Below, piece after piece: positions 3,954-62,511 of a stretch of DNA of 64,000 bases. The stretch covers positions 768,001 through 832,000 of the forward strand of contig CAVPLT010000004.1 in assembly GCA_963706325.1 (NCBI GenBank), read 5' to 3'. Positions within the stretch are counted from its first letter, which is position 1; every line of letters starts with the position of its first letter. The notes under the pieces are model-generated. The model saw only the letters and a program-made list of their open reading frames with translations. It was not told where the DNA came from and ran no database searches. Both the position numbers and the translations under genes were made by a program. This stretch comes from an uncultured Nitrospiraceae bacterium (lineage in GTDB: Bacteria > Nitrospirota > Nitrospiria > Nitrospirales > Nitrospiraceae).

Positions 3954-3998
3954 ATGTTAGAAAGGACTGAATGAATTCGGCACTAGGATCTACCCTAG
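3954..3998 (-). promoter_or_regulatory. Palindromic box plus -10 element facing the zinc-ribbon gene
   Basis: CTAGG-ATCTAC-CCTAG (3983-3998), 23-nt gap, TAACAT on the minus strand (3959-3954). Confidence 0.75.
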
Positions 3999-4029
3999 CC
4001 GAATCACGCTCGAAGGAGTTTCTGTACCG

Positions 4030-4074
4030 CTAGGGTTGTCCCTAGTGGGCAGGGGTATAGTCCATCCGTACAGT
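4030..4074 (+). promoter_or_regulatory. Palindromic box plus -10 element facing the cytochrome c/peroxiredoxin operon
   Basis: CTAGG-GTTGTC-CCTAG (4030-4045), 23-nt gap, TACAGT (4069-4074). Confidence 0.75.
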
Positions 4075-4177
4075 GCCCCACAGCGGGAGAGTGATGCATA
4101 GGCGACCTTGGTGCCATCCCTCTATCTGTTTGCTCAGCCGAAGGACGAATGGACCGTCCAAAAAGTGAGGTGTTCAG

Positions 4178-5635
4178 GTGTGTCTTTTTAAAACACAGGG
4201 TCGAATTCTGGCCTGGTTTTTCGCGATAGGTGGGACGTTTCTGTTCTTGACCGAGGGCGGAGCGGTCGCGCAGCCAGAGAACTCTCAGGATGAAAGACGG
4301 CCTCAAGGGAATCGCGCGATTGAGAAGAAGAAGGAAAAGGGCTTCGAGGGAGTAGATTTTTCTTATGATTTGTTCGGCGCTCCTCCTGGTCAATCCGCCA
4401 CTAAGATTGCAGAAGAAGTCATGGCGAAAGACGTGGCCGACAAGCCCAAGGTGATGGCCAAGCAAGTACAGCTGTTGAAGGAGCGCTACAGACTGGATTG
4501 CAAAATCCACTCCGGCGTTATGATGACCAAAGGAAAGCCGCAGCCCATAGGGCCTACGGTCCAATTGAAAGAAGGCGTCGGCTGGGACAAGTTGTCGGAG
4601 ATGACCCCGGAGGAAATCCGGAAACAGAAAGTATTTCCCGCCGGATTCATGCGATTACCGCACGTCAAACACGATGTCGGTGGGCAGGTCTTTCCTCAAA
4701 AGCAGATCGACCAGTTTCCTCGGCTCGAACGATTCGATGTGGATTTCGACCTTCCGGATTGTTTTCTCCCGGAGTTTCCGCCGCCGATTTTCTTGACGAC
4801 TCATCCTGAGCTGGGTGATGTGTCGCAGGGAGAAGTGTTGAGTGCGGACAATTTCGATCGTTTATTTCGAGGCTTGATCACTCCAGTTCAACTGGATGGC
4901 CTGAGAATGTTGGTGACTCAATTTCCACAAGAGGAGTTCAATCTCACGCCCGATCGGAAATCGCCCAAGCCCAGCCTGGGCGTCGCCTGCTTGGATTGTC
5001 ACGTGAACTTTCATACCACCGGGCAGTTTCATTTAAATCCCGATACGAGACCGCAACGGGATCGACTCAGATTGGACACCGTCAGCTTGAGGGGAATGTT
5101 CAATCAGCAGATTCATGGATCGAAACGAAGCATTCGATCGGTGGAAGATTTTACGGAATTTGAACAGCGCACCGCTTATTTTAACGGCGATCAAATCCGA
5201 GCCATCAAAAAGGGGATGAATGTGATCGATCGGCTGCAGGTCGCCCACATGGCACAGATTCAAAACATGATCGATTTTCCCCCGGCCCCGAAGCTGGATC
5301 CCATGACCGGGCGGCTGGATCGTACCAGGGCCGATCAGCAGGAGATTGCCGGCGAGGAGCTCTTCTTCGGTAAAGCGCGTTGTGCGGCCTGCCATCAACC
5401 TCCCGCCTATACCGATCATATGATGCATGATCTGTTTCTCGAGCGGTTTGGCGCCGAAGCGGACGGGCCGATCAAATCCTTTGCGCTGCGGGGCATCAAG
5501 GATTCACCGCCCTATTTCCATGATGGCCGATTGCTTACGTTGGAGGACACGGTCGAGTTCTTCAACCTCGTCGGTGGGCTGAAGCTGAACCGTGAAGAGA
5601 AAGCTGCGTTGGTCGCTTTCATGCGCGCACTATAA
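4178..5635 (+). CDS. Exported di-heme c-type cytochrome, cytochrome c peroxidase-like
   Basis: Signal peptide; two CxxCH motifs (CLDCH, CAACH); C-terminal SFALRGIKDSPPYFHDGRLLTLEDTVEFFN typical of the CCP/MauG superfamily. Confidence 0.85.
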   Translation: MCLFKTQGRILAWFFAIGGTFLFLTEGGAVAQPENSQDERRPQGNRAIEKKKEKGFEGVDFSYDLFGAPPGQSATKIAEEVMAKDVADKPKVMAKQVQLLKERYRLDCKIHSGVMMTKGKPQPIGPTVQLKEGVGWDKLSEMTPEEIRKQKVFPAGFMRLPHVKHDVGGQVFPQKQIDQFPRLERFDVDFDLPDCFLPEFPPPIFLTTHPELGDVSQGEVLSADNFDRLFRGLITPVQLDGLRMLVTQFPQEEFNLTPDRKSPKPSLGVACLDCHVNFHTTGQFHLNPDTRPQRDRLRLDTVSLRGMFNQQIHGSKRSIRSVEDFTEFEQRTAYFNGDQIRAIKKGMNVIDRLQVAHMAQIQNMIDFPPAPKLDPMTGRLDRTRADQQEIAGEELFFGKARCAACHQPPAYTDHMMHDLFLERFGAEADGPIKSFALRGIKDSPPYFHDGRLLTLEDTVEFFNLVGGLKLNREEKAALVAFMRAL

Positions 5636-5699
5636 CCTCATGCCGTTCACCACATAAAGAGGCCGCTGTTTGCACCATTGACCGATCGACCCAGGGACG

Positions 5700-8269: not shown

Positions 8270-8314
8270 CTAGGGATTTTGCCAGTTTTCTCACTGTTCC
8301 GATTTTTGTAAGGT
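8270..8314 (+). promoter_or_regulatory. Degenerate palindromic box plus -10 element upstream of the CBM48-glgC-treY operon
   Basis: CTAGG-GATTTT-GCCAG (2 mismatches), 23-nt gap, TAAGGT (8309-8314). Confidence 0.6.
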
Positions 8315-13259: not shown

Positions 13260-13322
13260 CCAGGAATCACGCTAGTTCTAGGGTACTCCCTAGCTGTTGG
13301 TTAGATGCCACGGCGTTAAGGA
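13260..13322 (+). promoter_or_regulatory. Tandem palindromic boxes upstream of the PRC-barrel genes
   Basis: CCAGG-AATCAC-GCTAG (13260-13275), then the perfect CTAGG-GTACTC-CCTAG (13278-13293); TAAGGA(T) lies 23 nt downstream. Confidence 0.65.
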
Positions 13323-15893: not shown

Positions 15894-15938
15894 ATCTTAG
15901 CTGCGGTACTCGCGCGCCCGAACTAGGTGGTTCCCTAG
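15894..15938 (-). promoter_or_regulatory. Palindromic box plus -10 element facing the GT4 gene
   Basis: CTAGG-TGGTTC-CCTAG (15923-15938), 23-nt gap, TAAGAT on the minus strand. Confidence 0.75.
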
Positions 15939-16714: not shown

Positions 16715-16748
16715 CTTCACCTCCCGGAATGAAGTCGCTGGCAAACAT

Positions 16749-16794
16749 ATTGTACCGGGCTCCCTGTTTCTCTCGGCACTAGGCGTATCCCTGG
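16749..16794 (-). promoter_or_regulatory. Palindromic box (1 mismatch) plus -10 element
   Basis: CTAGG-CGTATC-CCTGG (16779-16794), 24-nt gap, TACAAT on the minus strand. Confidence 0.65.
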
Positions 16795-20250: not shown

Positions 20251-20295
20251 ACTATAATGCGAATGGTTGGATTTCAACACTGGTGATTAACCTAG
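20251..20295 (-). promoter_or_regulatory. Degenerate palindromic box plus -10 element
   Basis: CTGGT-GATTAA-CCTAG (20280-20295), 23-nt gap, TATAGT on the minus strand. Confidence 0.6.
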
Positions 20296-20402: not shown

Positions 20403-20447
20403 CTAGGAATTTTACTAGGGATGAGATGCATAGAGATGTCTTATAAC
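20403..20447 (+). promoter_or_regulatory. Palindromic box (1 mismatch) plus -10-like element
   Basis: CTAGG-AATTTT-ACTAG (20403-20418), 23-nt gap, TATAAC. Confidence 0.65.
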
Positions 20448-22071: not shown

Positions 22072-22758
22072 ATGAAACATAGAGTACTGATTGCTGACGA
22101 TCATACCCTTGTTGCCGAGGGGGTCGAGAAACTTCTGGAGCATGAGTTTCAATTGTGCGGCAGGGTGGCCGATGGCCGGGCGCTCGTTCGGGCAGTAGAA
22201 AAGGACAAGCCCGATATTGCTATCGTGGATATCGCTCTCCCCTTATTGAATGGCCTAGACGCCTGTCGTCAGATTCGGAAAACTACGCCTGAAGTGAAGT
22301 TGCTCGTCCTCACCATGCACAGCGAGCAATATTTTGTGACGGAAGCGTTTCGCGCGGGAGTGTCAGGCTATGTTCTGAAGCAATCTGTGGCAGAAGAATT
22401 AGTGTTTGCCATCAAGGAAGTGCTCAAAGGCCGGTTGTATGTTTCTCCCAGCGTCGCAGAGAATCTTGTCGAGCAGGCGTTGAACCCTGCGGAGGCGCGG
22501 CCTTCAGGAGGTGTCCAAGGCGGGTCCGATAAATTAAGCGCTCGCCAGCGTGAAGTGTTACAGCTGATCGCAGAAGGGCAGTCGACGAAGGAAATTGCCT
22601 CGACTCTCAATGTATCCATCAAGACGATTGAATTTCACAAAACCCGTATTATGAAACAGCTCGGTGTTCATAGCACCGCTGAACTCACGAAGCATGCCAT
22701 CTCGATCGGTTTGATTGCCATGCCACAACAGCCTACGATGCCTGGAACACAGCCCTAA
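22072..22758 (+). CDS. NarL/FixJ-family response regulator (REC plus LuxR-type HTH)
   Basis: LIADDH, phosphoacceptor IVDIALP, and LSARQREVLQLIAEGQSTKEIA..LNVSIKTIEFHK. Confidence 0.95.
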   Translation: MKHRVLIADDHTLVAEGVEKLLEHEFQLCGRVADGRALVRAVEKDKPDIAIVDIALPLLNGLDACRQIRKTTPEVKLLVLTMHSEQYFVTEAFRAGVSGYVLKQSVAEELVFAIKEVLKGRLYVSPSVAENLVEQALNPAEARPSGGVQGGSDKLSARQREVLQLIAEGQSTKEIASTLNVSIKTIEFHKTRIMKQLGVHSTAELTKHAISIGLIAMPQQPTMPGTQP

Positions 22759-22943: not shown

Positions 22944-23600
22944 TTAAGGATGATGCTCATCGAGGCGCGTCAAGCCTTGCGAGAGGGCGAAGCGTGTCAA
23001 TTCCGCCGTGGTTCGAATGCCGAGCCTCCGCGTGATATTGCCTTTGTGAAACTCCACCGCTTTCGTAGACACTTGCATGCTGTCTGCAATTTCCTTCGTT
23101 GAAAGTCCTCTCGTCAGCAACTGTAAAACTTCTTGTTGACGCGGTGTCAGTTTCGACGAAAACCCCTCCGGCTTGACCCATGGCGTCTCGATCGCATCCT
23201 GTACTTCAAGCGAGAGCTGCGGGGACACATACCGTTGGTTCCTCAACGCAGCCGTCAGGGCGCTGAGCAGCTCAGTCGATGCCGACTGTTTTAAGACGTA
23301 GGCGGAAGCTCCCATGGCGAAGGCCTGTGAGATATAAAATGGCTCGCCCATCATCGTCACAAAAATTAATTTTGCGTGGGGGACTGTCGCTTTCAGCTGT
23401 CTGGCCACATCGAGGCCATTCAGGGTCGGCATAGAAATATCCAACAGAATGACGTCGGGGTTGAGACGAGGAGCGATATCTAAGAGTTCCTGTCCATTCG
23501 CCGCCGTTCCGACTACTGAATATTCCGGTTCCAGTAATTGCCGGTAAGCTTCCAGTACGATGCTATGGTCGTCCGCGATTACAAGTCGTGCTTTGGACAC
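22944..23600 (-). CDS. NarL/FixJ-family response regulator (REC plus LuxR-type HTH)
   Basis: VIADDH, LLDISMP, and LTPRQQEVLQLLTRGLSTKEIA...VSTKAVEFHK. Confidence 0.95.
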   Translation of the reverse strand: MSKARLVIADDHSIVLEAYRQLLEPEYSVVGTAANGQELLDIAPRLNPDVILLDISMPTLNGLDVARQLKATVPHAKLIFVTMMGEPFYISQAFAMGASAYVLKQSASTELLSALTAALRNQRYVSPQLSLEVQDAIETPWVKPEGFSSKLTPRQQEVLQLLTRGLSTKEIADSMQVSTKAVEFHKGNITRRLGIRTTAELTRFALSQGLTRLDEHHP

Positions 23601-23725: not shown

Positions 23726-23770
23726 TTCATAGCACGTTTCAAATGCCGGACCGCCTAGGAAAGCCCCCAG
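23726..23770 (-). promoter_or_regulatory. Palindromic box (1 mismatch) facing response regulator 2
   Basis: CTAGG-AAAGCC-CCCAG (23755-23770), 23-nt gap, TATGAA on the minus strand. Confidence 0.6.
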
Positions 23771-23782: not shown

Positions 23783-23827
23783 CCAGGGCTTCGCCTAGTA
23801 GAGACCAGGAGACGGCCATGCTAACGT
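23783..23827 (+). promoter_or_regulatory. Palindromic box (1 mismatch) plus extended -10 element facing sod
   Basis: CCAGG-GCTTCG-CCTAG (23783-23798), 23-nt gap, TG-c-TAACGT. Confidence 0.7.
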
Positions 23828-25565: not shown

Positions 25566-25610
25566 CTAGGGGTCTGCCTAGTTAGGTTGACGAGGTTCCT
25601 CTACTAACCT
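25566..25610 (+). promoter_or_regulatory. Palindromic box plus -10 element upstream of the ferritin-like/glgX operon
   Basis: CTAGG-GGTCTG-CCTAG (25566-25581), 23-nt gap, TAACCT. Confidence 0.75.
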
Positions 25611-28750: not shown

Positions 28751-28795
28751 CTAGGGAAATGTCCAGTCCCTGCGGCGCAATTCCGGGGCTATAAG
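28751..28795 (+). promoter_or_regulatory. Degenerate palindromic box plus -10-like element upstream of the csbD region
   Basis: CTAGG-GAAATG-TCCAG (2 mismatches), 23-nt gap, TATAAG(T). Confidence 0.6.
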
Positions 28796-31312: not shown

Positions 31313-32899
31313 TCAGGATTTGACGGGGTAGTGACTGAGAATCACCTCATAGAGCCGGCTGGCTGCCGACTCTTTTGGAAGAAAATCCGCGGCTCCCGCC
31401 TCCGTCATCGCTATCCTAACCTGAGGATCATTTCTCACGGAGATTCCAATCACGGTAACGGCCTCTTGCTCACGGCGTAAAATCCGGGTCGCTTCGATAC
31501 CGTCCAGCAGCGGCAAGTTGACGTCCATCACAACGACATCGGGATGAAGCGACCGCGCCATAATGACCGCGTCTTGCCCATCTGCTGCTTCGCCTACGAC
31601 CTTCAGATCATTGTAGCCGTCTAGAATGCTTCGGAGTCCCTGCCGAACCATGGCGTGGTCGTCCACTAAAAGGATTCTCACGCATCGGTCTGGAGATCGT
31701 TCGATATCCGTCACCATCTCCCCCGGGGGCGCCAGTGGAAGCGGGGCTGCCCCGGCGCAATTTTTAGTCAGCGGGAGGCGCAAAATGGCCAAGGTGCCTG
31801 CGCCGATGCATGAGGACAGCTCGCACGACCCACCCAGTAACTCCATTCGTTCCCGAATGGTGAGCAAGCCAAACTTGCTGTACGGGTCTTCGGCGGGGGA
31901 GAGGATGCCCACGTCAAATCCGATGCCACTGTCCTCAACGCAAATCCAGAGTTCGTTACTCTCATCAATCGTGATCGTAATACTGGCGTTGTCCGTCTGG
32001 GCATGCTTGACGACGTTGAATAAAAGTTCCCGCACCGACTGAAACAACAGGACCGCCTGGTCATCGGGGAGTGTCAACGAGCCCGGTGCGGCCTGGACTG
32101 CAACCTTGAGACCATGTTGCTTCATTTGATCGCCCAGCCAGGCCAGCGATTTCAGTAATCCAAATTGATAGAGAATATGAGGGCTGAGTTCCGCGACCAA
32201 TGATCGAGTATAGGTCAGGGCCTGGTCCAGCATCTGATCGACCCGGCTTAGTGAAGTCGAGAGGTTCTTGTCCTTAATCTGTAAAATAATTTGCGAGAGG
32301 CCGAGGCGACTGGCCACGACCAGCTGGGCGAGGTAGTCATGCAAGTCAGTGGCGAGCCTCCGGCGTTCGCGTTGTTCGGTCAGGGTCAGTTCCGACGCCA
32401 GTGCGCGTAAGCGATCTTGAGACCCGCGCAGTTCGTGGGTCCGTTCGATCAGAAGCCGTTCAAAGTCGGTGGCGAGTTGTTGCAATTGACGCTCCGCCTG
32501 CTTGCGGGGCGAAATATCCCGGGCAATTTTGGAAGCGCCGATAATACGGCCGGCAGAATCTTTCAGCGGGGACACCGTCAGAGATATCTCCACGAACGAT
32601 CCGTCTTTGCGTTGCCTCACGGTTTCATAGTGGTCAATGCGGTCGCCGTTATGAAGACGCTCTAAAATCTGAATTTCCTCATGGCAGCGATCGGGCGGAA
32701 TGAGACGATGAATGGGCTGGCCGATCATCTCTTGAGCCGTGTATCCGAAGAGGGCCTCGGCTCCTCGGTTCCAGGTAAGCACGACACCCTGCAGGTTTTT
32801 AGAAATGATCGCGTCGTCTGAAAATTCTACGATTGCCGCTGCCTGGGCGAGGGCGAACTCGGGGTTGTCAGATAGGAACGAGGTGGATTCATTACTCAT
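31313..32899 (-). CDS. Cytoplasmic hybrid histidine kinase: PAS - HisKA_3 - HATPase - REC
   Basis: PAS (SDDAIISKNLQG..LTWNRGAE.LFGY), H-box ERRRLATDLHDYLAQ, ELLFNVVKHA, DSGIGF, FGL..IRER, and C-terminal REC (LVDDH..MDVNLP). Confidence 0.92.
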   Translation of the reverse strand: MSNESTSFLSDNPEFALAQAAAIVEFSDDAIISKNLQGVVLTWNRGAEALFGYTAQEMIGQPIHRLIPPDRCHEEIQILERLHNGDRIDHYETVRQRKDGSFVEISLTVSPLKDSAGRIIGASKIARDISPRKQAERQLQQLATDFERLLIERTHELRGSQDRLRALASELTLTEQRERRRLATDLHDYLAQLVVASRLGLSQIILQIKDKNLSTSLSRVDQMLDQALTYTRSLVAELSPHILYQFGLLKSLAWLGDQMKQHGLKVAVQAAPGSLTLPDDQAVLLFQSVRELLFNVVKHAQTDNASITITIDESNELWICVEDSGIGFDVGILSPAEDPYSKFGLLTIRERMELLGGSCELSSCIGAGTLAILRLPLTKNCAGAAPLPLAPPGEMVTDIERSPDRCVRILLVDDHAMVRQGLRSILDGYNDLKVVGEAADGQDAVIMARSLHPDVVVMDVNLPLLDGIEATRILRREQEAVTVIGISVRNDPQVRIAMTEAGAADFLPKESAASRLYEVILSHYPVKS

Positions 32900-33004
32900 A
32901 CATTCGGTCAGTCCTATACCCCGCCTACCCGTGGTTTCTAGGCACGCGTTGAGGTCGCAATGGCAGTCGGCTATTGCGGGCCAATATACGATCTTAAAGG
33001 CCAC

Positions 33005-33048
33005 ATTTTAAACCAGCATTTAAACTGCGCCACTAGGCAAAACGCTAG
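33005..33048 (-). promoter_or_regulatory. Palindromic box (1 mismatch) plus -10 element facing the PAS kinase
   Basis: CTAGG-CAAAAC-GCTAG (33033-33048), 22-nt gap, TAAAAT on the minus strand. Confidence 0.65.
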
Positions 33049-33066: not shown

Positions 33067-33082
33067 CTAGGGAGACGCCTAG
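33067..33082. promoter_or_regulatory. Perfect palindromic box, auxiliary site
   Basis: CTAGG-GAGACG-CCTAG. Confidence 0.7.
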
Positions 33083-33252: not shown

Positions 33253-33298
33253 ACTAGGGGTTCCCCTAGTCCTTCCTCATCTCGAAGCTATCTATAGT
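33253..33298 (+). promoter_or_regulatory. Palindromic box plus -10 element facing the poly-HAMP kinase operon
   Basis: ACTAGGGG-TT-CCCCTAGT (33253-33270, the most symmetric copy), 23-nt gap from the 16-bp core, TATAGT. Confidence 0.78.
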
Positions 33299-33377
33299 GT
33301 TTCGCGCTAGAAATGTTCGGCAATTCTTTTTCCCGCCCATAGGAAGATCGTGTCCACACCACTCGACGGAGGAATTG

Positions 33378-36300
33378 ATGAAAAGCAAGCCGCGTACGCA
33401 GGCGGGTGAGCGACAGGAGTCCGGCCTTCTCCATGATCATGGGCACGATAAGGCTATCCTAAGCATACTTCAGGCGGTCAAGAAGGGTGACTTTTCGGTG
33501 CGGCTCCCCGCAGAGTGGACGGGAATGGCCGGAAAGATCGCCGATGAAATTAATGGTTTGATCGAGTTGAATGCCCTGTTTGCAGAGGAGTTCAAACGGG
33601 TCAGCCACGCGGTCGGGAAAAAGGGAAAATTATCCGAGCGAGCCTCGGTGCCGGAAGCCAGGGGAGAGTGGAAGACCAACATCGAAGCCGTGAACGGTCT
33701 TATCGATGACTTGGTACGGCCGACTACTGAAATGGCCCGTGTCATTGGCGCCGTGGCCAAGGGGGATTTGACTCAATCCGTGGCGTTGGAAGCGGAAGGC
33801 CATCCGTTACGAGGAGAATTCTTGAGCACAGCTAAAACCGTCAACAGCATGGTGGGTCAGCTCGACGCGTTTGCGGCGGAGGTTACGCGGGTCGCTCGAG
33901 AAGTGGGCACGGAAGGCAAACTGGGTGGACAGGCAGTCGTACCAGGCGTCGCCGGCACGTGGAAGGATCTCACTGACAATGTCAATTCAATGGCTAGCAA
34001 CCTCACGAACCAGGTGCGCAATATTGCGGAGGTCACGATTGCCGTGGCCAACGGCGACCTCTCGAAAAAGATTACGGCCGACGTGCGCGGCGAGATTCTC
34101 CAGCTCAAAGACACGATTAATACCATGGTTGATCAATTGCGCAGCTTTGCGGCGGAGGTGACCCGTGTCGCGCGTGAAGTGGGGACCGACGGCAAGCTTG
34201 GCGGGCAGGCCGTTGTGCCAGGCGTCGCCGGGACCTGGAAAGATCTCACTGACAGCGTGAATTCCATGGCCAGCAATCTGACGAATCAAGTGCGGAACAT
34301 CGCGGATGTGACAGTTGCGGTGGCCAATGGGGACCTTTCGAAAAAAATTACGGTAGACGTACGCGGCGAAATTCTGCAGCTCAAAGATACGATCAACACA
34401 ATGGTTGACCAGCTGCGCAGCTTTGCGGCGGAGGTCACGCGCGTCGCGCGCGAAGTAGGCACGGACGGCAAGCTGGGTGGCCAGGCTCAAGTACGGGACG
34501 TGAGTGGGGTCTGGAAGGATTTGACGGAGAGTGTGAACCTTATGGCAGGCAATCTGACGGCCCAGGTCCGTAACATTGCCGATGTGACGACAGCCGTCGC
34601 CAACGGGGACCTCTCCAAGAAAATCACCGCGGACGTGCGGGGTGAAATTCTTCAGCTTAAGGAAGCCATCAATACAATGGTGGATCAATTACGAGGGTTC
34701 GCGGCGGAAGTCACGCGCGTGGCCCGGGAGGTCGGTACCGAGGGGAAGTTGGGCGGGCAGGCCGTGGTGCCAGGCGTGGCCGGGACCTGGAAAGATCTGA
34801 CGGACAGCGTGAATTCCATGGCCAGCAATCTGACGAACCAAGTGCGCAATATTGCGGAGGTCACGACCGCCGTGGCCAACGGCGACCTCTCGAAAAAGAT
34901 TACGGCCGACGTACGCGGCGAGATTCTCCAGCTCAAAGACACGATCAATACCATGGTGGACCAGCTGCGCAGTTTTGCGGCCGAGGTCACGCGCGTCGCG
35001 CGCGAGGTCGGCACGGATGGGAAGCTCGGCGGTCAAGCACAGGTTCGGGACGTGAGCGGCGTATGGAAAGACCTGACCGATAGCGTGAATTCCATGGCGA
35101 GTAATCTCACGGCGCAGGTCAGAAACATCGCGGAAGTCACCACGGCGGTGGCCAACGGCGACCTCTCGAAAAAGATTACGGCCGACGTACGCGGCGAGAT
35201 TCTCCAGCTCAAAGAGGCCATCAACACGATGGTCGACCAGTTACGCAGCTTCGCGGCGGAAGTCACGCGGGTGGCCCTTGAGGTCGGCACGGAAGGCAAA
35301 CTTGGCGGGCAGGCCCAGGTGCGGGATGTGAGCGGCGTTTGGAAGGATCTGACGGAAAGTGTCAACCTGATGGCCGGTAATCTCACCGACCAAGTGCGCA
35401 ACATCGCCGACGTGACGATCGCCGTGGCGAATGGAGATTTGTCAAAAAAAATCACCGTGGACGTGCGCGGCGAAATTCTCCAGTTGAAGGAAGCCATCAA
35501 CACGATGGTCGATCAGTTACGTAGCTTCGCGGCGGAAGTCACGCGCGTGGCCCGCGAGGTGGGCACCGAAGGCAAACTCGGTGGACAGGCGGCGGTGTCC
35601 GGGGTGGCCGGGACCTGGAAGGACCTCACGGACAGTGTCAATTCCATGGCCAGCAATCTCACCGACCAGGTGAGAAACATTGCCTATGTCACGATTGCCG
35701 TCGCAAACGGGGATCTATCGAAAAAGATCACGGCGGATGTGCGCGGAGAGATCCTTCAGCTCAAGGAAGCCATCAATACGATGGTCGACCAGCTGAGAAG
35801 CTTCGCGGCCGAAGTGACGCGCGTGGCGCGCGAGGTCGGGACAGAGGGCAAAGTTGGGCGGGCAGGCACAGGTGCGAGATGTGAGCGGTGTCTGGAAAGA
35901 CCTGACTGACAGCGTGAATCTCATGGCCGGAAATTTAACGGACCAGGTGCGCAACATTGCGAATGTGACGATTGCCGTGGCGAACGGTGACCTGTCCAAA
36001 AAGATTACGGTAGACGTGCATGGCGAGATTCTCCAGCTCAAAGAAGCCATCAACACGATGGTCGACCAGTTGAGAAGCTTTGCCGCGGAAGTCACACGCG
36101 TGGCGAGGGAAGTCGGCACCGAAGGGAAGTTGGGCGGGCAGGCCATCGTTCCTGGCGTCGCGGGAACTTGGAAGGACTTGACCGACAGCGTGAATAGCAT
36201 GGCGCGGAATCTCACGGCGCAAGTCCGGAACATCGCGGAAGTGACGATTGCGGTGGCCAGCGGCGACCTGTCAAAGAAAATCACCGTCGACGTGCACGGC

Positions 36301-39300
36301 GAGATTCTGCAACTCAAAGATACGACGAATACCATGGTGGACCAGTTGAACGCGTTTGCCGCGGAAGTCACACGCGTGGCGCGGGAAGTCGGCACCGAAG
36401 GGAAGTTGGGCGGGCAGGCCGTGGTGCCGGGGGTGGCGGGGACGTGGAAGGACCTGACCGATAGCGTGAATGCGATGGCAAGCAATCTGACGGCCCAGGT
36501 GCGGAATATCGCGGAAGTGACCATCGCGGTGGCCAGCGGCGACCTGTCGAAGAAAATCACGGTGGACGTGCGCGGCGAAATTCTTCAGCTGAAGGACACG
36601 ACGAATACGATGGTGGACCAGTTGAATGGGTTTGCCGCGGAAGTCACCAGGGTGGCGCGAGAAGTCGGCACCGAAGGGAAGCTGGGTGGGCAGGCCGTGG
36701 TACCGGGGGTGGCGGGAATCTGGAAGGATTTGACCGACAGCGTGAACGCCATGGCGAGTAACCTGACGGTGCAATTGCGGGATATGTCGACCGTCGCCAC
36801 CTCCATCGCGAATGGAGATTTGACGAGACAGATCACGGTGGATGTACGCGGAGAGATTCTGCAAATCAAGGACGTCATCAACCGCATGGTCGCCCAGCTC
36901 AGCGCCTTTGCGAGCGAGGTGACGCGTGTGGCGCGAGAAGTCGGCACCGAAGGCAAGCTCGGTGGTCAGGCGATTGTGCCGGGGGTTCCGGGAACCTGGA
37001 AGGATCTGACCGAGAGCGTGAATCTTCTGGCGGCCAATCTTACGACGCAGGTGCGCGCCATTGCTGAAGTCGCCACGGCCGTCACGCAAGGAGACCTCAC
37101 GAGGTCTATTCAGGTTCAGGCGCGCGGCGAGGTCGCGGAGCTGAAAGACAATATCAACGTCATGATCCGGACATTACAGGCGACGACCGATCAGAACACG
37201 GAGCAGGACTGGCTCAAGACCAACCTCGCGAAATTCACGCGCATGATGCAAGGGCAACGGGACTTGACCACAGTGGGTGATCTGTTGCTGACCGAGCTGG
37301 CGCCGTTGGTCAATGCGCAATACGGAGCGATCTATCAGCGTGATACGGCGGACAAGCCGCTGTTGCGGTTGCTGGCAAGTTATGCGGGTGGGGCAGAGGT
37401 GGTGGCGCCCGAGGAGATGAGGGTCGGGGTCGGGCTCGTCGCGCAATGCGCACGGGAAAAACGACGCATTATGCTGACCAACGTTCCCTCCGACTATATA
37501 CGGATTCGCTCGGGACTGGGACAGGCTCACGCGCGTAACGTGATCGTCTTGCCCGTCCTGTTCGAAGGCCAGACCAAGGCGGTCATCGAACTCGCGACCC
37601 TGTCAGAGTTCACCCCGACCCATGTGGGCTTCCTCGGGCAGTTAACTGAGACGATCGGTGTGGTGGTCAATACGATTGAAGCGACGATGCAGACAGAAGG
37701 CCTGCTGCAACAGTCGCAGAACCTGGCCACCGAGTTACAGGCCCAACAAAAGGAGCTGCAGCAAACCAACGAAGAGCTGGCCAAAAAGGCTCAACAGCTC
37801 GCTGAACAGAATGCAGAAGTGGAAATGAAGAACAGGGAAATCGAGCAGGCCCGGCATGCGTTGGAAGATAAGGCGCGAGAGCTGGCTTTGGCGTCGAAGT
37901 ACAAGTCCGAGTTCCTCGCCAACATGTCTCACGAACTACGGACTCCCCTGAATAGCATCCTCATTCTGGCGCAACAACTGGGGGAGAACCCGGACCGTAA
38001 CCTCAGCTCCAAACAGGTGGAATTTTCCAAAAACATTCACGCGGCGGGCGCCGACCTTCTCAATTTGATCAGCGATATTCTAGATTTGTCGAAGATCGAG
38101 TCCGGCACCGTCACGGTCGAGCCGGAAGAAGTGCTCTTCATGAAAGTCCGCGAAGCCACCGAGCGCAGTTTCCGTCACGTCGCGGAAGCGAGGCAGCTGA
38201 CCTTTCAGATCGACATCGATTCGCAGTTGCCCCGCAGCATGGTGACCGACTTCAAGCGATTGCAGCAGGTGTTGAAGAATCTCCTGTCGAATGCCTTCAA
38301 GTTTACCTCTCATGGCCAAGTGACGTTCCGCGTTCGACGCGCCTTGACAGGATGGAGCCTGGATCACGCGGTCTTGAGTACGGTCCCCACGGTGGTGGCC
38401 TTCGAAGTGAGTGACACCGGAATCGGTATCCCGGTGGAAAAGCAGAAGATTGTCTTCGAGGCTTTTCAACAGGCGGACGCAGGGACGAGCCGGCGGTTCG
38501 GAGGCACGGGGCTTGGGCTGGCGATCAGTCGCGAATTGGCCATGCTGCTGGGCGGCGAAATTCGTCTCGTGAGCGCTCCCGGAGAAGGCAGCACATTTAC
38601 GCTGTATTTGCCTGAGGTATATTTGGGCGCGACGCCGGAACTCATTCCTCCCAAGTTTAAATTGCAGGAACAAGCGCCGTTGCTGGTGCAGCAGGCCCAT
38701 CGCCTGGAAGATATTCCGGATGATCGGGAGAGCATTATTCCCGGCGAGCCGACAGTGCTGATCGTCGAAGATGATCCGCATTATGCCCGTGTGCTTCTAG
38801 GAGCCGTTCGGGAGAAGGGGCTGAAGGGAATTGTGACCGCCCATGGACGGTTGGCCTTGAGCTTGACGAGGGAATATAAGCCTGTCGCCATCACACTGGA
38901 TATCTTCTTGCCGGACATGCTGGGCTGGACGGTTCTCAGTCACCTGAAGCAGGATCCCGAAACTCGACATATCCCGGTCCAGATTCTCACCGTGGAGGAA
39001 GAGCGGTTGCATGGTTTGGGACACGGCGCTTTCGCCTACATGATCAAGCCCACCACGACAGAAGACCTGGGCGAGACGTTCGGACGTCTGGTCAACTTCA
39101 CAAAACCCAGACGTAAGCAATTGTTGCTGGTCGAGGATAATGAGATCGAGAGCCGCAGCCTCTGCGAGTTACTGAGCCACGAAGAGGTGGACATCGTGCC
39201 GAGCAACAACGGGACGGATGCCTGGAATCTGCTCTCCCAACGGCATTTCGACTGCGTCGTCTTGGACCTTCGACTGCCCGATATGTCCGGCTTCCAGATT

Positions 39301-39942
39301 CTCGAACGTATCCGTGAACATGAGGCTCTGCGGAACCTTCCCGTCATCGTCTCGACAGGCAAGGACTTGAGCGAGGAAGAAGAAATCCACCTGAGGGAGC
39401 TGTCCCAAGGGATCGTGCTGAAAGGTGTGCAATCGCCGGAACGGCTGCTGGACGAGGCGACATTGTTCTTGCATTTAGTGGTGGCCCAATTACCGCCTGA
39501 AAAGCAGCGCATGTTGGAACGGGTTCGTCAGAGTGACGATGCGCTGGTCGGGAAGAAGGTGTTGGTGGTGGATGACGACATGCGAAATATTTTTGCCCTG
39601 ACCAGTCTTCTGGAGCGCCATGGGATGGACGTAATCAGTTGCGAAACCGGACGAGAAGCGATTCGAAATGTGGAAGAGGATGGCGACCTAGATATGGTCC
39701 TGATGGATATCATGATGCCCGAAATGGACGGCTATGAAACCATGCGCCAAATCAGGCAGAATCCGCAGCATCGGCTGCTGCCCATTTTGGCGCTGACGGC
39801 GAAGGCCATGAAGGGCGACCGAGAACGCTGCCTCCAAGCCGGCGCGTCGGATTATATCGCGAAACCGGTGAACACCGATGAACTGTTGGCGCTCCTCAGG
39901 ATTTGGCTGTTTGGGCGCAAGAAAGCGATGGGTCGTCCATGA
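33378..39942 (+). CDS. Giant poly-HAMP hybrid histidine kinase (HAMP array - GAF - HisKA - HATPase - 3x REC), about 2,190 aa, interrupted by one frameshift near 35851
   Basis: Twelve 92-aa repeats with EVTRVA.EVGT.GKLGGQA plus one degenerate N-terminal unit; [18 protein letters not shown]-box; three REC domains. An extra A (GGCAAAGTTG for GGCAAGTTG) splits the ORF. GGAGGA RBS. Confidence 0.9.
33800..37170 (+). repeat. Coding tandem repeat with a 276-bp unit, about 12 copies
   Basis: The EVTRVA marker recurs every 276 nt from about 33880 to about 36917. Confidence 0.92.
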
Positions 39943-40012: not shown

Positions 40013-42046
40013 ATGACCAATATCCAGGCAAAAATCCTGTTGGTTGATGACGACGCCAGAAGTCTGATGGCAATGGAAACATTGCTGACGGGTCCCGGAA
40101 GGGTCGTCATCACGGCAGATTCTGGCCAGGAGGCTCTGCGCCAAGTGCTTCGTCACGATTTTGCCGTGATTCTGCTCGATGTCCGCATGCCCAGAGTCGA
40201 TGGATTCGAGGCTGCCGAATTAATACGACAGCGGGAGCAGTCGCGTCACACGCCGATTATCTTTTTATCGGCTGTGGACAAGTTGGACGAAGATGTATTC
40301 CGAGGACTGGCGAGCGGGGCAGTGGACTATCTGTTTAAACCGGTCGTTCCCGAAGTACTGCAAAGTAAAGTTTCTGTATTCGTGGACCTGTATCGTATGC
40401 GCGAGCGGGTGAAGATTCAGGCTGTTCGGCAGGGGGAAGAGCGTTTTAGCCTGCTGGTGGACAGCATCAGGGACTATTCAATTCTCCTGCTGAGTCCGGA
40501 AGGGACGATCACCAGCTGGAATCCCGGCGCCCAACTGGTCGAAGGATACGAAGCGTCGGAAGTCATCGGCCTCAACCATGCCGTATTTTTCGCCAGCGAG
40601 GAGATCACACAAGGTAATCCGGCCCTGACGCTGGAAATGGCGGCAGCCGCCGGTCAGCATGAGGACGAAGGTTGGAGAGTGCGCAAGGATGGATCCAGAT
40701 TCTGGGCCAATGTCGTCACGACCGCCATGAAAGACGAGGCCGGAAAAATCAGCGGGTTTGCCCGCGTCGCCCGTGATCTGACGGAGCGGAAGGCCGCGGA
40801 GGAACAGTTACGAAAGATTGCCGTCGAACTGGAACAGCGCGTCAGCGAACGGACGCAAGAATTGCGCGATTCTCACGTGCGGCTTCGTGATCTCGCGACG
40901 GAACTGACTTTGACGGAACAGCGCGAGCGGCGGAGGTTGGCGGGCGACCTGCACGACTATTTAGCGCAATTACTGGTACTCATCCGGATAAAAATCCGCC
41001 AAGCCTCGGCCCATGTCAAAGAAGCGGCTCCGACGTCCCTGCTGATGGAGGCCGATCAGGCCATCATCGACTCGCTCAACTACACGCGATCTTTGGTAGC
41101 CGAATTGGCTCCTCCCGCGCTACAGGAGTTTGGGCTTCTCGAGGGATTCGGATGGCTGGCTGAGCAAATGCAGAATCATGGCCTGACGGTCACGGTTAAA
41201 AAGAACATCCAACGGGTCGAACTGGATGACGACCAGGCGGTGCTCGTGTTTCAATCAACGCGTGAATTGTTATTCAACGTGTTGAAACATGCCGGCACCA
41301 ATCAGGCGGAAGTCACGATTGATAAAAATGACGACGGCCATCTCGTGGTAAGGGTGAAGGATGAGGGTTGTGGTTTCAATCCCGATGAAGTGATCGCACC
41401 GAGCGATGAGCGAAAGCGATTCGGACTATTCAGTGTCCGAGAGCGCACCGAGGCCATGGGAGGCCGACTTGAGGTAACTTCTCTCAGCGACCGGGGCACC
41501 TGCGCGGCATTGATCGTTCCCTATTGGCCTTCGGCGCCACGCCCGGCGATGAAGCCGACGCCGGCCGCACCGCCGGTAGCGCAGGGAGTCGAGTCACGGG
41601 TGAACTTGGAATCTTCCGCGCTCGATGAAAGAGTCCGTTCAACCGGTGATGATCCTGTTCAGGGTAAGGTCCTACGTATACTCCTGGCTGATGACCATGC
41701 GATGGTCCGACAGGGCCTGCGCAGTATTTTGGACGCCTATCGCGACATCACCGTGGTGGGCGAAGCGGCTGATGGAGAGGAGGCAGTGGCAATGGCCGGC
41801 TTGTTGGATCCCGATGTGATCGTCATGGATGTCAATATGGCGAAGTTGGACGGCATCGAAGCGACACGCCGGGTGAAAGCTAAATGGCCTGAGATCCTCG
41901 TCGTCGGGCTCTCAGTATCCACGCGCGCCCAGGTAGAGTCACTGCTGTTAGAGGCAGGGGCCAGCTGCTACGTGTCTAAGGAGTCGGCCGGCGAGCATCT
42001 GTATGGCGCGATTGTCACGGCGGTGCAACAGCACGCCAACCAATGA
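40013..42046 (+). CDS. Cytoplasmic hybrid histidine kinase: REC - PAS - HisKA_3 - HATPase - REC
   Basis: N-terminal REC (LLVDDD..LLDVRMP), PAS (WNPGAQ...WRVRKDGSRFWANV), ERRRLAGDLHDYLAQ, ELLFNVLKHA, and C-terminal REC; AAGGAG RBS. Confidence 0.92.
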   Translation: MTNIQAKILLVDDDARSLMAMETLLTGPGRVVITADSGQEALRQVLRHDFAVILLDVRMPRVDGFEAAELIRQREQSRHTPIIFLSAVDKLDEDVFRGLASGAVDYLFKPVVPEVLQSKVSVFVDLYRMRERVKIQAVRQGEERFSLLVDSIRDYSILLLSPEGTITSWNPGAQLVEGYEASEVIGLNHAVFFASEEITQGNPALTLEMAAAAGQHEDEGWRVRKDGSRFWANVVTTAMKDEAGKISGFARVARDLTERKAAEEQLRKIAVELEQRVSERTQELRDSHVRLRDLATELTLTEQRERRRLAGDLHDYLAQLLVLIRIKIRQASAHVKEAAPTSLLMEADQAIIDSLNYTRSLVAELAPPALQEFGLLEGFGWLAEQMQNHGLTVTVKKNIQRVELDDDQAVLVFQSTRELLFNVLKHAGTNQAEVTIDKNDDGHLVVRVKDEGCGFNPDEVIAPSDERKRFGLFSVRERTEAMGGRLEVTSLSDRGTCAALIVPYWPSAPRPAMKPTPAAPPVAQGVESRVNLESSALDERVRSTGDDPVQGKVLRILLADDHAMVRQGLRSILDAYRDITVVGEAADGEEAVAMAGLLDPDVIVMDVNMAKLDGIEATRRVKAKWPEILVVGLSVSTRAQVESLLLEAGASCYVSKESAGEHLYGAIVTAVQQHANQ

Positions 42047-43405: not shown

Positions 43406-43479
43406 ACTCTAGCAAACTCCCGGAAGACAGCTACTAGGGAAACCTCTCGGCTTCCGAATCACGCTAGGGAAGAGTCCGG
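43406..43479 (-). promoter_or_regulatory. Two degenerate palindromic boxes; the first has a -10 element facing the Cu-storage gene
   Basis: CTAGG-GAAACC-TCTCG (43434-43449), 22-nt gap, TAGAGT on the minus strand; second site CTAGG-GAAGAG-TCCGG (43464-43479). Confidence 0.55.
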
Positions 43480-44456: not shown

Positions 44457-44501
44457 ATCGTATTCGCGTTGGGCCCATCAGCAAACTAGGAGGTCCCCTA
44501 G
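44457..44501 (-). promoter_or_regulatory. Palindromic box plus -10 element
   Basis: AAA-CTAGG-AGGTCC-CCTAG-TTT (core 44486-44501), 23-nt gap, TACGAT on the minus strand. Confidence 0.75.
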
Positions 44502-48285: not shown

Positions 48286-48329
48286 AGCCTAATGGAGACA
48301 GCGGAGAATACAGCTAGGGATGGGCCTAG
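48286..48329 (-). promoter_or_regulatory. Palindromic box plus -10 element facing the FAD/Rieske gene
   Basis: CTAGG-GATGGG-CCTAG (48314-48329), 22-nt gap, TAGGCT on the minus strand. Confidence 0.7.
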
Positions 48330-48362: not shown

Positions 48363-48407
48363 CTAGGGATTATCCGAGTTGGCCGCGCGCGTCGCTACCG
48401 CTATTTT
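48363..48407 (+). promoter_or_regulatory. Palindromic box (1 mismatch) plus -10 element facing the ku operon
   Basis: CTAGG-GATTAT-CCGAG (48363-48378), 23-nt gap, TATTTT. Confidence 0.7.
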
Positions 48408-52564: not shown

Positions 52565-52592
52565 GGCGACAGGCACCGAGTCCGAACAGGGA

Positions 52593-55432: not shown

Positions 55433-55557
55433 CCGTTATTCTTTCAACTGGGGAGCTAATCTAGACCGAAACTGGGCACTCCACTCTCTGGGGTGCTCTC
55501 TTTAGTTTCTCCAACCATCTTGGCAGCGCCGCATAGTTCCCTTTCATCACAAGCTGT

Positions 55558-58076: not shown

Positions 58077-58121
58077 CTAGGGTACCCACTAGCTCCAACC
58101 TGCAGTATTGACCGGTACAGT
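58077..58121 (+). promoter_or_regulatory. Palindromic box (1 mismatch) plus -10 element upstream of the OMP-Slp-ligD run
   Basis: CTAGG-GTACCC-ACTAG (58077-58092), 23-nt gap, TACAGT. Confidence 0.7.
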
Positions 58122-59053: not shown

Positions 59054-59066
59054 AGGCCGGACAGAC

Positions 59067-59789: not shown

Positions 59790-59824
59790 TGTGACAGGCG
59801 CGGCCTCGGCGGCGAAGGAGCCAC

Positions 59825-62428
59825 ATGGGTCTTCGGCAGTATTGGAAAAAACGCGACTTCAAGCAAACACCCGAACCGCGAGGGAAAGAGGTTCCGCCTC
59901 AAGGCCGGTTGCAGTTCGTCATTCAAAAACATGCCGCAAGCCGTCTCCATTATGACTTTCGGCTCGAATTGGATGGCACGTTGAAAAGCTGGGCCGTCCC
60001 CAAGGGGCCCAGCTTGGATCCTGCACAGAAACGGCTGGCCGTGCACGTTGAAGATCATCCGCTTGACTACGCAAGCTTTGAGGGGATCATTCCTGCCAAA
60101 CAATACGGCGGCGGAACGGTGCTGCTCTGGGACCGGGGTTACTGGGAAGCCATTGGCGATGCAGGATCGAGTTACCGTCGCGGACGACTCAAGTTCGTGC
60201 TGCACGGGGAAAAACTGCGCGGTATCTGGAATCTGGTTCGCATGGGTGGTCGACAGGAAGCGGGCAAGGAAAATTGGCTCCTGATTAAGGAAAAGGATGA
60301 GGAAGCGCGCAGTGGGAAAAAAAGCGATGTAACACAGAGCCTTCCGGCGAGCGTCGCAACTGGAAAGAGCATCGAGCAAATTGCCACCGGAAAACATGCG
60401 GTGTGGCAATCTAATAGACCCTCGGATAAACAAGGCCGGGGTGCCAAGGCGCGGCGCCCCGTTAAGAGTGTTTCCGCTCCAGGCGCTGTCAAGGCCGCCC
60501 AAGAAAAATGGGTTGTCCCGCAATTGGCGACGTTGGTCACCGCCTCTCCCGAAGGAGAAGAATGGGTGCACGAACTCAAGTATGACGGGTATCGCATCTT
60601 GTGCCGGATCCAAGGCGGCAGGGCCACATTGCTGACTCGAAATGGAAACGATTGGACCGCCAAGCTGCCCCATATCGCCCGCGCGGCCGCAGACCTTGCG
60701 GTGAAAACAGCCTGGCTTGACGGCGAAGTCGTCGCCTTACTGCCGGACGGGCGCGTCAGCTTCCAAACCCTGCAGAATGCATTCGATACGCATTCCGACA
60801 GCAATTTGGTTTATTTCGTATTTGACCTTCTGTATCTCGACGGCTACGACTTACGGCCCGCCTTGCTGATTGAGCGTAAACGTCTTTTATCGGCCCTGTT
60901 TCAAGACAGCTCCCCGACGGATCTCATTCACTATAGCGATCACATCACCGGCAAGGGGGACGTCGCCTTCACCGAAGCCTGCCGAAGCGGCATGGAGGGG
61001 TTGATTGCCAAACGCGCCGATGCGTCCTATGTGGGGGGGCGAAATCGCAACTGGGTCAAGGTGAAGTGCGGGCGGCGGCAGGAGTTCGTGATCGGGGGAT
61101 TTACCGATCCCTCCGGCTCACGTAGCGGCTTTGGGGCATTGCTGCTCGGGGTCTATGATACGCATGGCCAGCTGCGATTTTCAGGACGCACGGGAACCGG
61201 CTTCTCCCAGCGTTCCTTGAAGGAACTTCACAGCCGACTCAAGAAGCTGGAACAAGATACGTCTCCGTTTTTAAACCCGCCCAGAGAGAGAGGTCTGCAT
61301 TGGGTGAAGCCGACACTGGTAGCCGAGGTCGCTTTCGCTGAATGGACGAATGAAGACCAGTTGAGGCAAGCGTCGTTTCAAGGCCTTCGCGAGGACAAAG
61401 ATCCCCGGAAGGTGATCCACGAGCGACCAGCGCCCGAGGTTTCGCCTGAGATGACGGACAAGCCTTCTCGCTCTCGATCGTGGCGTCGGAAAGAAAAATC
61501 AAAAGGACGACCGTCTTCGAGGAGCGATTCCCAGGAGAGCGCGAATGTCGTCAGCGGTGTGACCCTCAGCCATCCGGACCGAGTGTTGTTTCCCGAGCAA
61601 AGCGTCACCAAACTCGCGCTGGCGCGATATTACGAATCTATCAGCGAATGGATCATCCCGCACGTGGAAGATCGACCATTGACGCTTGTTCGCTGCCCGG
61701 AGGGATACAACAAGGAGTGTTTTTATCAGAAACATGCGAACGATCGCATACCCGAGGCGGTCGGACGCGTCGACATTCCCGAAGATGACGGGACCGCTTC
61801 CTATATGGTGGCGGATTCGCCGGCTGCGCTGGTGGGGCTGGTTCAAATGGGCGTGTTGGAGCTGCATACGTGGGGGTCGAAGCGGGATAAACTCGAACGT
61901 CCGGACCGCATGATCCTCGATCTCGACCCAGATCCCGCGGTCGAGTGGTCTGCCGTCATTGAAGGCGCGCAACTGCTGCGCACCCTGCTGAATGAATTGA
62001 ACCTTGCCTCGTTCGTCAAGACGACGGGCGGGAAGGGCCTTCATATCGTGGTGCCGCTGCAACGCGTCCATACCTGGGACGAGGTGAAGACGTTCTCGAA
62101 AGCGCTTGCCGATCATCTTGTCCATACGATCCCGGAACGTTTCCTCGCAAATATGTCGAAGCACAAGCGCAAGGGGAAAATCTATATCGATTATTTACGC
62201 AACGCGCGGGGCGCGACGGCGGTGGCCGCCTATTCCACCCGGGCTAGGCAAGGCGCGCCGATATCCGTGCCGTTAGCCTGGGAGGAACTGTCGGTCGACC
62301 TGCGATCCGACCATTTCACCATGACCAATTTGCCGGAACGGCTCGGACAGCTGCGTAAAGATCCTTGGAAGGATTATTTTACGGCGAAACAGCGCATCAG
62401 CCGCAAGATGCTCATGAGTTTGGTGTAA
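59825..62428 (+). CDS. ligD: NHEJ DNA ligase D (phosphoesterase - ligase - polymerase)
   Basis: FVIQKHAASRLHYDFRLE (phosphoesterase), ELKYDGYR and EGLIAKR (ligase), LSHPDRVLFP, DLDP, KTTGGKGLH and IDYLRN (polymerase). Confidence 0.96.
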   Translation: MGLRQYWKKRDFKQTPEPRGKEVPPQGRLQFVIQKHAASRLHYDFRLELDGTLKSWAVPKGPSLDPAQKRLAVHVEDHPLDYASFEGIIPAKQYGGGTVLLWDRGYWEAIGDAGSSYRRGRLKFVLHGEKLRGIWNLVRMGGRQEAGKENWLLIKEKDEEARSGKKSDVTQSLPASVATGKSIEQIATGKHAVWQSNRPSDKQGRGAKARRPVKSVSAPGAVKAAQEKWVVPQLATLVTASPEGEEWVHELKYDGYRILCRIQGGRATLLTRNGNDWTAKLPHIARAAADLAVKTAWLDGEVVALLPDGRVSFQTLQNAFDTHSDSNLVYFVFDLLYLDGYDLRPALLIERKRLLSALFQDSSPTDLIHYSDHITGKGDVAFTEACRSGMEGLIAKRADASYVGGRNRNWVKVKCGRRQEFVIGGFTDPSGSRSGFGALLLGVYDTHGQLRFSGRTGTGFSQRSLKELHSRLKKLEQDTSPFLNPPRERGLHWVKPTLVAEVAFAEWTNEDQLRQASFQGLREDKDPRKVIHERPAPEVSPEMTDKPSRSRSWRRKEKSKGRPSSRSDSQESANVVSGVTLSHPDRVLFPEQSVTKLALARYYESISEWIIPHVEDRPLTLVRCPEGYNKECFYQKHANDRIPEAVGRVDIPEDDGTASYMVADSPAALVGLVQMGVLELHTWGSKRDKLERPDRMILDLDPDPAVEWSAVIEGAQLLRTLLNELNLASFVKTTGGKGLHIVVPLQRVHTWDEVKTFSKALADHLVHTIPERFLANMSKHKRKGKIYIDYLRNARGATAVAAYSTRARQGAPISVPLAWEELSVDLRSDHFTMTNLPERLGQLRKDPWKDYFTAKQRISRKMLMSLV

Positions 62429-62466
62429 CTCTATGAATGGGTGGCTAGGGTGGTTAGGTCAGCGAC

Positions 62467-62511
62467 CTGGGGGGAGTGCTAGTAGAGTCAATTCGGCGGT
62501 CCTGGTATCAG
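62467..62511 (+). promoter_or_regulatory. Degenerate palindromic box plus extended -10-like element
   Basis: CTGGG-GGGAGT-GCTAG (2 mismatches), 23-nt gap, TG-g-TATCAG(T). Confidence 0.55.

Follow-up and report, generated by a model that had tools for sequence, protein, structure and literature searches.

A palindromic promoter box in a Nitrospiraceae stress-gene island and its candidate NarL/LuxR-type regulators

A stress-gene island with a recurrent palindrome

In soils and treatment plants, members of the genus Nitrospira oxidize nitrite, and in part they also perform complete nitrification. To our knowledge, little is known about how they regulate survival through drying or starvation. Here we describe a 64,000-nt stretch of DNA (“the window”, G000:C4:768001-832000) from the 4.2-Mb, 96% complete genome (G000) of an uncultured Nitrospiraceae bacterium, in which a 16-bp palindrome, CTAGG-N6-CCTAG (“the box”), recurs upstream of genes. 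By Pfam content the window is a stress-gene island, encoding AhpC, GlgC, amylase-family enzymes of trehalose and glycogen metabolism, PRC barrels, GT4 and GH15 enzymes, superoxide dismutase, ferritin, Ku, topoisomerase IB, LigD, Slp, CsbD and DUF1328 proteins. Its signalling genes comprise two response regulators with REC and LuxR-type helix-turn-helix (HTH) domains and three hybrid kinases.

A first-pass annotation of the window listed 24 copies of the box, and all of them exist with the mismatch classes given there. The nine perfect and seven one-mismatch copies lie exactly where they were placed, and the weaker copies have two mismatches (8270, 13260, 20280, 28751, 43434, 62467) or three (21938, 43464). 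With up to one mismatch allowed, the box matches the window 17 times, against 0.76 ± 0.84 times in 100 dinucleotide shuffles. These matches include a one-mismatch copy at 19559 that had been overlooked. It lies in coding DNA and fails the promoter model described below.

Across the genome there are 22 perfect copies with the six-nucleotide spacer (nine of them in the window), whereas any other spacer length between 0 and 15 gives 0-5. All 22 are intergenic, where 0.30 would be expected from intergenic half-site counts, and none lies between convergent genes; genes were called with a simple in-house finder, so the intergenic and coding labels are approximate. One-mismatch copies with the N6 spacer divide into 72 intergenic and 25 coding, compared with 16-21 intergenic and 5-11 coding at spacers of 4, 5, 7, and 8. 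The reversed pattern GATCC-N6-GGATC is an unfair control because GATC is far commoner than CTAG; its 5-24 copies in genomes of the genus probably reflect composition.

The box is held at a fixed distance from a -10-like hexamer. The 94 intergenic copies with no more than one mismatch have 188 flanks. TANNNT begins 23 nt from the box in 30 of these flanks, and 10 more have it at 22 nt and 7 at 24 nt, against a background of about 1.9 per offset; boxes with other spacers have TANNNT at 22-24 nt in just 1 of 162 flanks. With a 17-nt spacer from the -10, the -35 hexamer should begin at the first base past the box, and the box itself, positioned by reference to the -10, would span about -51 to -36 with its center at about -43.5. 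It thereby appears to be specifically placed like the site of a class II activator abutting the -35 element. The bases that follow the box match TTG weakly in the 47 sites with a -10 at 22-24 nt (T in 31, T in 23, G in 20). The next gene lies on the promoter strand in 41 of these 47 promoters; of the six exceptions, two or more face short open reading frames (ORFs) that the gene finder did not call, at 3703-3924 and 43944-44408.

We trained a promoter model (box plus -10) on 35 promoters, all outside the window. Twenty window sites pass it, all non-coding and all among the 24 listed, where 0.32 would be expected per 64 kb; the listed weak sites at 13260, 21938, 43464, and 62467 are not supported. 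The island is syntenic in 10 relatives of the genus, where box and -10 are kept upstream of several genes (counts below) while the core and flanks vary. Thus, the intergenic bias, the position bias and the conservation upstream of orthologs on which the first-pass annotation had staked its reading are all present.

The individual boxes are given here from left to right, with strand, -10 hexamer and its distance in brackets. Two perfect boxes at the left end point outwards: 3983..3998 (-; TAACAT at 23 nt) faces the small ORF 3703-3924(-), and 4030..4045 (+; TACAGT at 23 nt) faces a two-CxxCH protein (4178-5635) and AhpC, and is kept in 6/6 relatives that have the gene. The two-mismatch box 8270..8285 (+; TAAGGT at 23 nt) precedes genes for a CBM48 protein, GlgC and a maltooligosyl-trehalose synthase-like amylase, and is kept in only some relatives. 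Two PRC-barrel genes follow the perfect box 13278..13293 (+; imperfect -10, TAAGGA at 23 nt), which is found as a perfect copy within 600 nt in 6/9 relatives and one gene further upstream in at least three others. The perfect box of the GT4 glycosyltransferase gene (15923..15938, -; TAAGAT at 23 nt) is perfect in 8/8 relatives. A one-mismatch box at 16779..16794 (-; TACAAT at 24 nt) faces the small ORF 16391-16744(-), and a two-mismatch box at 20280..20295 (-; TATAGT at 23 nt) faces the ORF 19407-20240(-).

The regulatory genes are themselves preceded by boxes. The one-mismatch box 20403..20418 (+; TATAAC at 23 nt) faces the gene for a 444-aa putative outer-membrane barrel and then the first response regulator (RR1), and has at most one mismatch in 9/10 relatives. 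Another one-mismatch box, 23755..23770 (-; TATGAA at 23 nt), faces the second regulator (RR2), predicting autoregulation; boxes lie about 100-220 nt upstream of most RR2 orthologs with flanking sequence. Its divergent neighbor 23783..23798 (one mismatch, +; TAACGT at 23 nt) faces an Fe/Mn superoxide dismutase gene, and the perfect box 25566..25581 (+; TAACCT at 23 nt) faces bacterioferritin and GlgX genes, both boxes being kept in 10/10 relatives. The CsbD-like gene 29062-29301 follows a two-mismatch box at 28751..28766 (+; TATAAG at 23 nt). A HisKA_3 kinase gene is faced by the one-mismatch box 33033..33048 (-; TAAAAT at 22 nt), kept in 9/9 relatives; the perfect copy at 33067..33082, 34 bp away, has no -10 at 22-24 nt and is likely an auxiliary site. 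The perfect box 33254..33269 (+; TATAGT at 23 nt) faces the operon of a poly-HAMP hybrid kinase.

Further right, a DUF326 four-helix protein gene (42951-43358, -) is faced by the two-mismatch box 43434..43449 (-; TAGAGT at 22 nt), the ORF 43944-44408(-) by the perfect box 44486..44501 (-; TACGAT at 23 nt), and an FAD oxidoreductase-Rieske gene by the perfect box 48314..48329 (-; TAGGCT at 22 nt). The one-mismatch box 48363..48378 (+; TATTTT at 23 nt) heads genes for Ku, topoisomerase IB, a TreZ-like enzyme, a debranching enzyme and a DUF72 protein, and 58077..58092 (one mismatch, +; TACAGT at 23 nt) those for an outer-membrane protein barrel, an Slp lipoprotein and LigD. The last site, 62467..62482 (two mismatches, +; TATCAG at 23 nt), is marginal and falls under the model threshold; it lies before the ORF 62557-62814. 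Short, low-depth RNA contigs from four runs, some near-identical, cover genes for RR1, RR2, CsbD, bacterioferritin and PRC proteins; transcript starts, strands and levels cannot be read from them, and DNA contamination is possible. In a word screen of eight RNA runs, at most 9% of words were present.

Candidate regulators

The genome has 25 matches to GerE (the LuxR-type domain), among which seven have a recognition helix ending in FHK, four of these seven with a lysine at the place of RcsB K180 (aligned by eye). The four, here termed K-type, are RR1, RR2 and two paralogs elsewhere in the genome (C7:696210-696851 and C1:16824-17471), and the helix of their clade reads KT[VI]EFHK. An R-type paralog is encoded at C5:234007-234651. 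One protein in the sequence cluster of the window's regulator is annotated as a response regulator of Nitrospira sp., and further homologs likewise carry Nitrospira names. RR1 (22072..22758, +; helix SIKTIEFHK) and RR2 (22944..23600, -; helix STKAVEFHK), encoded convergently, each combine REC with a GerE HTH, with the aspartate pair D10 and D11, the phospho-acceptor D54, T82, and K104 invariant, and are candidate cognate activators. Two hybrid kinases identified with Pfam, one PAS-HisKA_3-HATPase-REC (31313..33004, -) and one REC-PAS-HisKA_3-HATPase-REC (40013..42046, +), are candidate HisKA_3 partners by their position near RR1 and RR2. The third kinase, poly-HAMP-GAF-HisKA-HATPase-3xREC (33297..39942, +), occupies two frames here and a single 2097-aa ORF in genome G184; by architecture we take it to resemble OsaA/Nik1-type hybrid kinases.

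The box tends to accompany K-type regulator genes. Of 63 such genes, 41 have a box no more than 500 nt away, versus 0 of 6 R-type genes, counted from 90 entries after those with short flanks, low scores or unreadable helices were excluded. Among the 22 K-type genes with no box at that distance, about ten are RR1 orthologs with a box one gene further upstream. An N5-spacer control near the same K-type regulators gave 12/63, likely from shifted-by-one overlap with true N6 boxes. A quick tree resolved four K-type clades, and boxes adjoin most members of each. For a Rhizobium plasmid homolog in which R replaces K, no convincing box was found.

Comparison with characterized regulators points to a related mode of action rather than to family membership. 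RcsB reads TN(G/A)GA-N4-TC(T/C)NA via K180, with GGG lowering its binding (PMC7913699), and its sites usually lie upstream of the -35 (PMC5651002). The present system resembles that of RcsB in its 14-bp inverted-repeat geometry next to the -35, its predicted LuxR HTH dimer and its osmotic and stress targets, and also in the predicted lysine read-out at an I-K-T helix start. It differs in its box, a near-perfect CTAGG(G) palindrome, and in the K-type helix, which continues EFHK where RcsB has S183-S184. Moreover, the regulators reach 77-94 bits with the RcsB model, whose cut-off is 235, and by that test are not RcsB orthologs; the candidate kinases are of HisKA_3 and poly-HAMP types, the latter scoring 276 bits against the RcsC cut-off of 920.

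BvgA has TAAGAAATTTCCTA as its primary site, and the sites proximal to the promoter lie directly against a poor -35 (PMC7250471). These inverted TAAGAAATTTCCTA heptads share the center spacing of the box and, at the proximal site, its position. BvgA sites, compared by description, differ in forming arrays at 22-bp spacing before virulence genes, whereas the boxes here are single or in pairs 28-49 bp apart. The ACTU motif of CrbR was also considered and set aside as a different sequence (PMC5715377).

RR1, RR2 and their paralogs find their best NCBIfam models in MctR and SsrB (PRK15369), at 139-168 bits. These scores are far below the respective cut-offs of 300 and 242, so they are not orthologs by that test. 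We regard the box promoters as probably working in an RcsB/BvgA-like manner, but the regulators fall far under every NCBIfam cut-off and are not counted as members of those systems. Their nearest solved structures are VraR, NarL and DesR. The clade is large and unnamed (6585 clusters at E ≤ 1e-70 among 8000 scored), and the box would provide it with a predicted DNA motif.

Distribution across genomes and predicted targets

The box is confined neither to the window nor to Nitrospira. All 36 relatives drawn from the genus carry perfect boxes (1-22 per genome), and one was found in 3/24 genomes from other families. We surveyed 251 genomes of the family Nitrospiraceae from 33 genera, in which a perfect box with a -10 occurs in 139 genomes and 12 genera. 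A regulator profile built from 13 K-type proteins matches 214 of the same genomes. The promoter is present in 139 of these 214 and in none of the 37 without the regulator clade, and regulator and promoter counts are correlated (Spearman 0.68). Genomes with an RR2 ortholog have a median of 12 perfect boxes versus 3.5 for those without (26 versus 10 genomes), and in a second genus the median is 5 promoters with the RR pair or half of it versus 0.5 (13 versus 18 genomes). With between 0 and over 20 copies per genome, the box could serve as a genomic marker of stress-hardy lineages.

A strict promoter pattern scanned over one genome per species matched at least 125 stretches, among them 54 from Acidobacteriota and 11 from Nitrospiraceae or nitrite-oxidizer bins. 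Eighteen of these short listed loci include part of a LuxR/NarL-type regulator gene. Among the matches listed, the acidobacterial spacer is 23-24 nt in 60 of 61 cases, and the core is A/T-rich. Islands in which most operons are preceded by a box occur in three acidobacterial genomes, together with K-type regulators and sensor kinases. In an even draw, 2/201 genomes of the phylum and 19/201 of the order of G279 (this central genome included) had the promoter. Thus, it is patchy in Acidobacteriota and not a phylum-wide trait. Betaproteobacterial promoters (five genomes with one or two each) were discarded as they did not exceed the reversed control. Among viral contigs, 75 stretches (L231-L305) match the strict pattern. 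In several loci (L031, L072, L087, L088, L097; L160:9594; L161:10120) a -10 lies on both sides of a single box, which predicts a pair of divergent promoters sharing one palindrome.

Targets outside the window in the G000 genome, from a Pfam scan of 56 proteins of which many lack a Pfam family, include an RsbR-RsbS-RsbT stressosome operon, YtxH, two hemerythrins, a protoglobin-domain protein, YceI, a zinc dehydrogenase, DUF72 and PAS-HisKA_3 kinases. A perfect box precedes the stressosome operon (L168:3494-8568, on contig C7), whose last gene encodes a hybrid histidine kinase; the genome has no SigB match. Another Nitrospiraceae record (L034) shows this arrangement ahead of RsbR as well. The acidobacterial targets, identified among 100 selected proteins, are different: Orn/Lys/Arg decarboxylase, Asp/Ala exchangers, DcaP, carbonic anhydrase, SulP, DUF3300/DUF2950, MscS and RND efflux proteins.

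A predicted general-stress regulon and its alternatives

Taken together, these observations make it probable that the box before a -10 is a site for phosphorylated dimers of NarL/LuxR-clade regulators with the KT[VI]EFHK helix, which would activate a predicted general-stress regulon. The first-pass annotation had likewise read the palindrome as a LuxR/NarL-type dimer site upstream of stress genes, a prediction that the sequence evidence supports. We envisage that the poly-HAMP/GAF hybrid kinase and the two PAS-HisKA_3 hybrids, which would be cytoplasmic, pass phosphate to RR1 and RR2. A phosphorylated K-type dimer could then occupy the inverted TAGG(G) half-sites, which span about -51 to -36. 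At these promoters, whose -35 is weak, the dimer would recruit a sigma-70-family holoenzyme containing either RpoD or the RpoS-like sigma factor, by class II activation. Boxes before RR2 (23755), the gene leading to RR1 (20403) and the kinase units (33033, 33254) would create positive feedback. The two further paralogs with the same helix may read the same box, and paralogs sharing helix and box would allow several sensors to feed one regulon. Judging by the targets alone, the inducing signal is likely water, osmotic or starvation stress.

Several observations weigh against this interpretation. Half of the 94 sites lack a -10, and the clade is present but no perfect promoter is found in 75/214 family genomes. 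In one genus (g1) none of 10 RR1 genes has a box immediately before it, even when one mismatch is allowed, and in G282 the roughly 10 kb around one K-type regulator locus contain no box. There is no RR1 ortholog match in G022 (15 perfect boxes, 93% complete) or G239 (nine promoters, 99% complete), and none to RR2 in G022 either, so the pair is not strictly needed. The p-values for co-occurrence are overstated because related genomes are not independent, and the island itself holds many of the counted sites. Finally, since the genome also encodes an RpoS-like sigma factor (C5:309549-310511; 326 bits against a cut-off of 379) and 25 LuxR-domain matches, the stress response may need that sigma factor too.

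The first-pass annotation proposed one transcription factor for the whole island. A paralogous response-regulator clade with one recognition helix is the likelier reader, and up to four paralogs, rather than one factor, likely recognize it. A single reader, with the other paralogs as targets or bystanders, is possible but doubtful. It could be the core paralog C7:696210-696851, which occurs genus-wide and has an adjacent perfect box in G007, G015, and G032, all of which lack the island pair. Alternatively, RR1 and RR2 could form an obligate heterodimer like RcsA-RcsB: they remain a convergent pair in two genera, and the promoters show a slight asymmetry (G at position 6 in 35/47, C at position 12 in 42/47). 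Neither form of the idea sits well with neighboring boxes at all four K-type clades, with a site number that scales with paralog number, or with box-rich genomes that lack the pair.

It is also conceivable, if rather unlikely, that the regulon is real but answers a narrower cue, such as low oxygen or redox, acid or metal, and has captured a stress island. Such a cue would suit the hemerythrins, the protoglobin-domain protein and the PAS kinases among the outside-window targets, the core-paralog site that precedes an RND efflux operon, and the decarboxylases, exchangers, carbonic anhydrase and SulP of Acidobacteriota. It does not suit the Nitrospira set of CsbD, YtxH, DUF1328, Ku/LigD, glycogen/trehalose enzymes, superoxide dismutase, bacterioferritin and the RsbR-S-T stressosome, which we take to be typical of sigma-B, sigma-S and EcfG regulons.

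That the box serves as a repressor operator, or binds a factor outside the LuxR type, seems improbable to us. The box touches the -35 position, where a bound protein could block polymerase, and the cognate assignment comes from co-occurrence and proximity. However, the box ends just upstream of the -35 rather than covering the core promoter, the weak TTG after it resembles activator-dependent promoters, and no promoter was found in the 37 family genomes without the clade. A mobile-element scar, REP-like repeat or restriction/methylation site is scarcely credible: CTAG is palindromic and depleted in the window (96 versus 243), and the box can be read as a direct CTAG repeat around eight bases, but the core and flanks are free to vary with the -10 distance fixed across two phyla, orthologous promoters keep the box at 55-90% protein identity, and convergent intergenic regions have no perfect copies. 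The first-pass annotation had set aside a mobile repeat on the variable core and unrelated flanks.

Activation by K-type dimers would set this regulon apart from known general stress responses. It resembles the sigma-B, sigma-S and PhyR-NepR-EcfG regulons in its CsbD, YtxH, Ku/LigD, glycogen/trehalose, ferritin-like, PRC-barrel and stressosome genes, but the shared element here is a palindromic activator site and not a sigma-specific -35/-10 pair. In the 96% complete G000 genome, no match above cut-off was found to SigB/F/G (best 133.5 versus 234 bits) or to PhyR (one match, in an ECF-sized frame, at 25.3 versus 27 bits). A more tentative extension, which we offer with less than even confidence, is that Nitrospira may run a general stress (dormancy/desiccation) response without a dedicated stress-sigma cascade, in which a pool of paralogous NarL-type regulators on one box, fed by many kinases (poly-HAMP, PAS, stressosome-linked), would act as an OR gate with positive feedback; this module may be portable between phyla and rewired to acid/ion homeostasis islands in soil Acidobacteria.

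We regard the regulon and promoter class as real and apparently undescribed. The literature searched described neither the motif nor a box regulon in Nitrospira or Acidobacteria; subscription papers, supplements, RegPrecise and CollecTF were outside its scope and could hold one. The box yields a predictable regulon, named candidate regulators and predicted transcription starts, and these predictions could be tested with purified proteins and Escherichia coli reporters, with no need for Nitrospira genetics. In the window, transcription is predicted to start near 4081(+), 23834(+), 25617(+), 33305(+), 48414(+), 58128(+), 15887(-) and 48279(-).

Some minor features of the boxes and the island deserve mention. 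About 70 kb before the start of the window, six more intergenic boxes form another cluster (G000:C4:680000-700000), in the company of small ORFs without annotation and another DUF72 gene. The word GAATCACGCT stands beside three window boxes (3999-4009, 13263-13273, 43453-43464) and could represent an additional, degenerate half-site or be recognized by a second factor. The two-CxxCH protein of 4178-5635 (485 aa, no Pfam match), predicted to be co-transcribed with AhpC, is likely di-heme cytochrome c peroxidase-like. The 444-aa protein (20506-21840) has no Pfam family and is 80-89% identical in relatives. Its gene adjoins RR1 in two genera, upstream in one and divergent around a box in another, and atlas features (28% of one cluster) weakly suggest an Omp85-like barrel.

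Three genes are frame-split in this assembly, GH15 (17303-18654), the poly-HAMP kinase (33297-39942) and the glycogen debranching enzyme (52512-54644), which may represent assembly errors or decay; GH15 is one 598-aa ORF in four relatives. An ORF at 55461-56048, without a Pfam match at 1e-4, resembles by eye the remnant of an IS3-type transposase. Small cysteine-rich ORFs (CxxC...CxxCG) that look paralogous lie at both ends of the island, 3703-3924(-) behind a box and 62557-62814(+) behind the marginal one.

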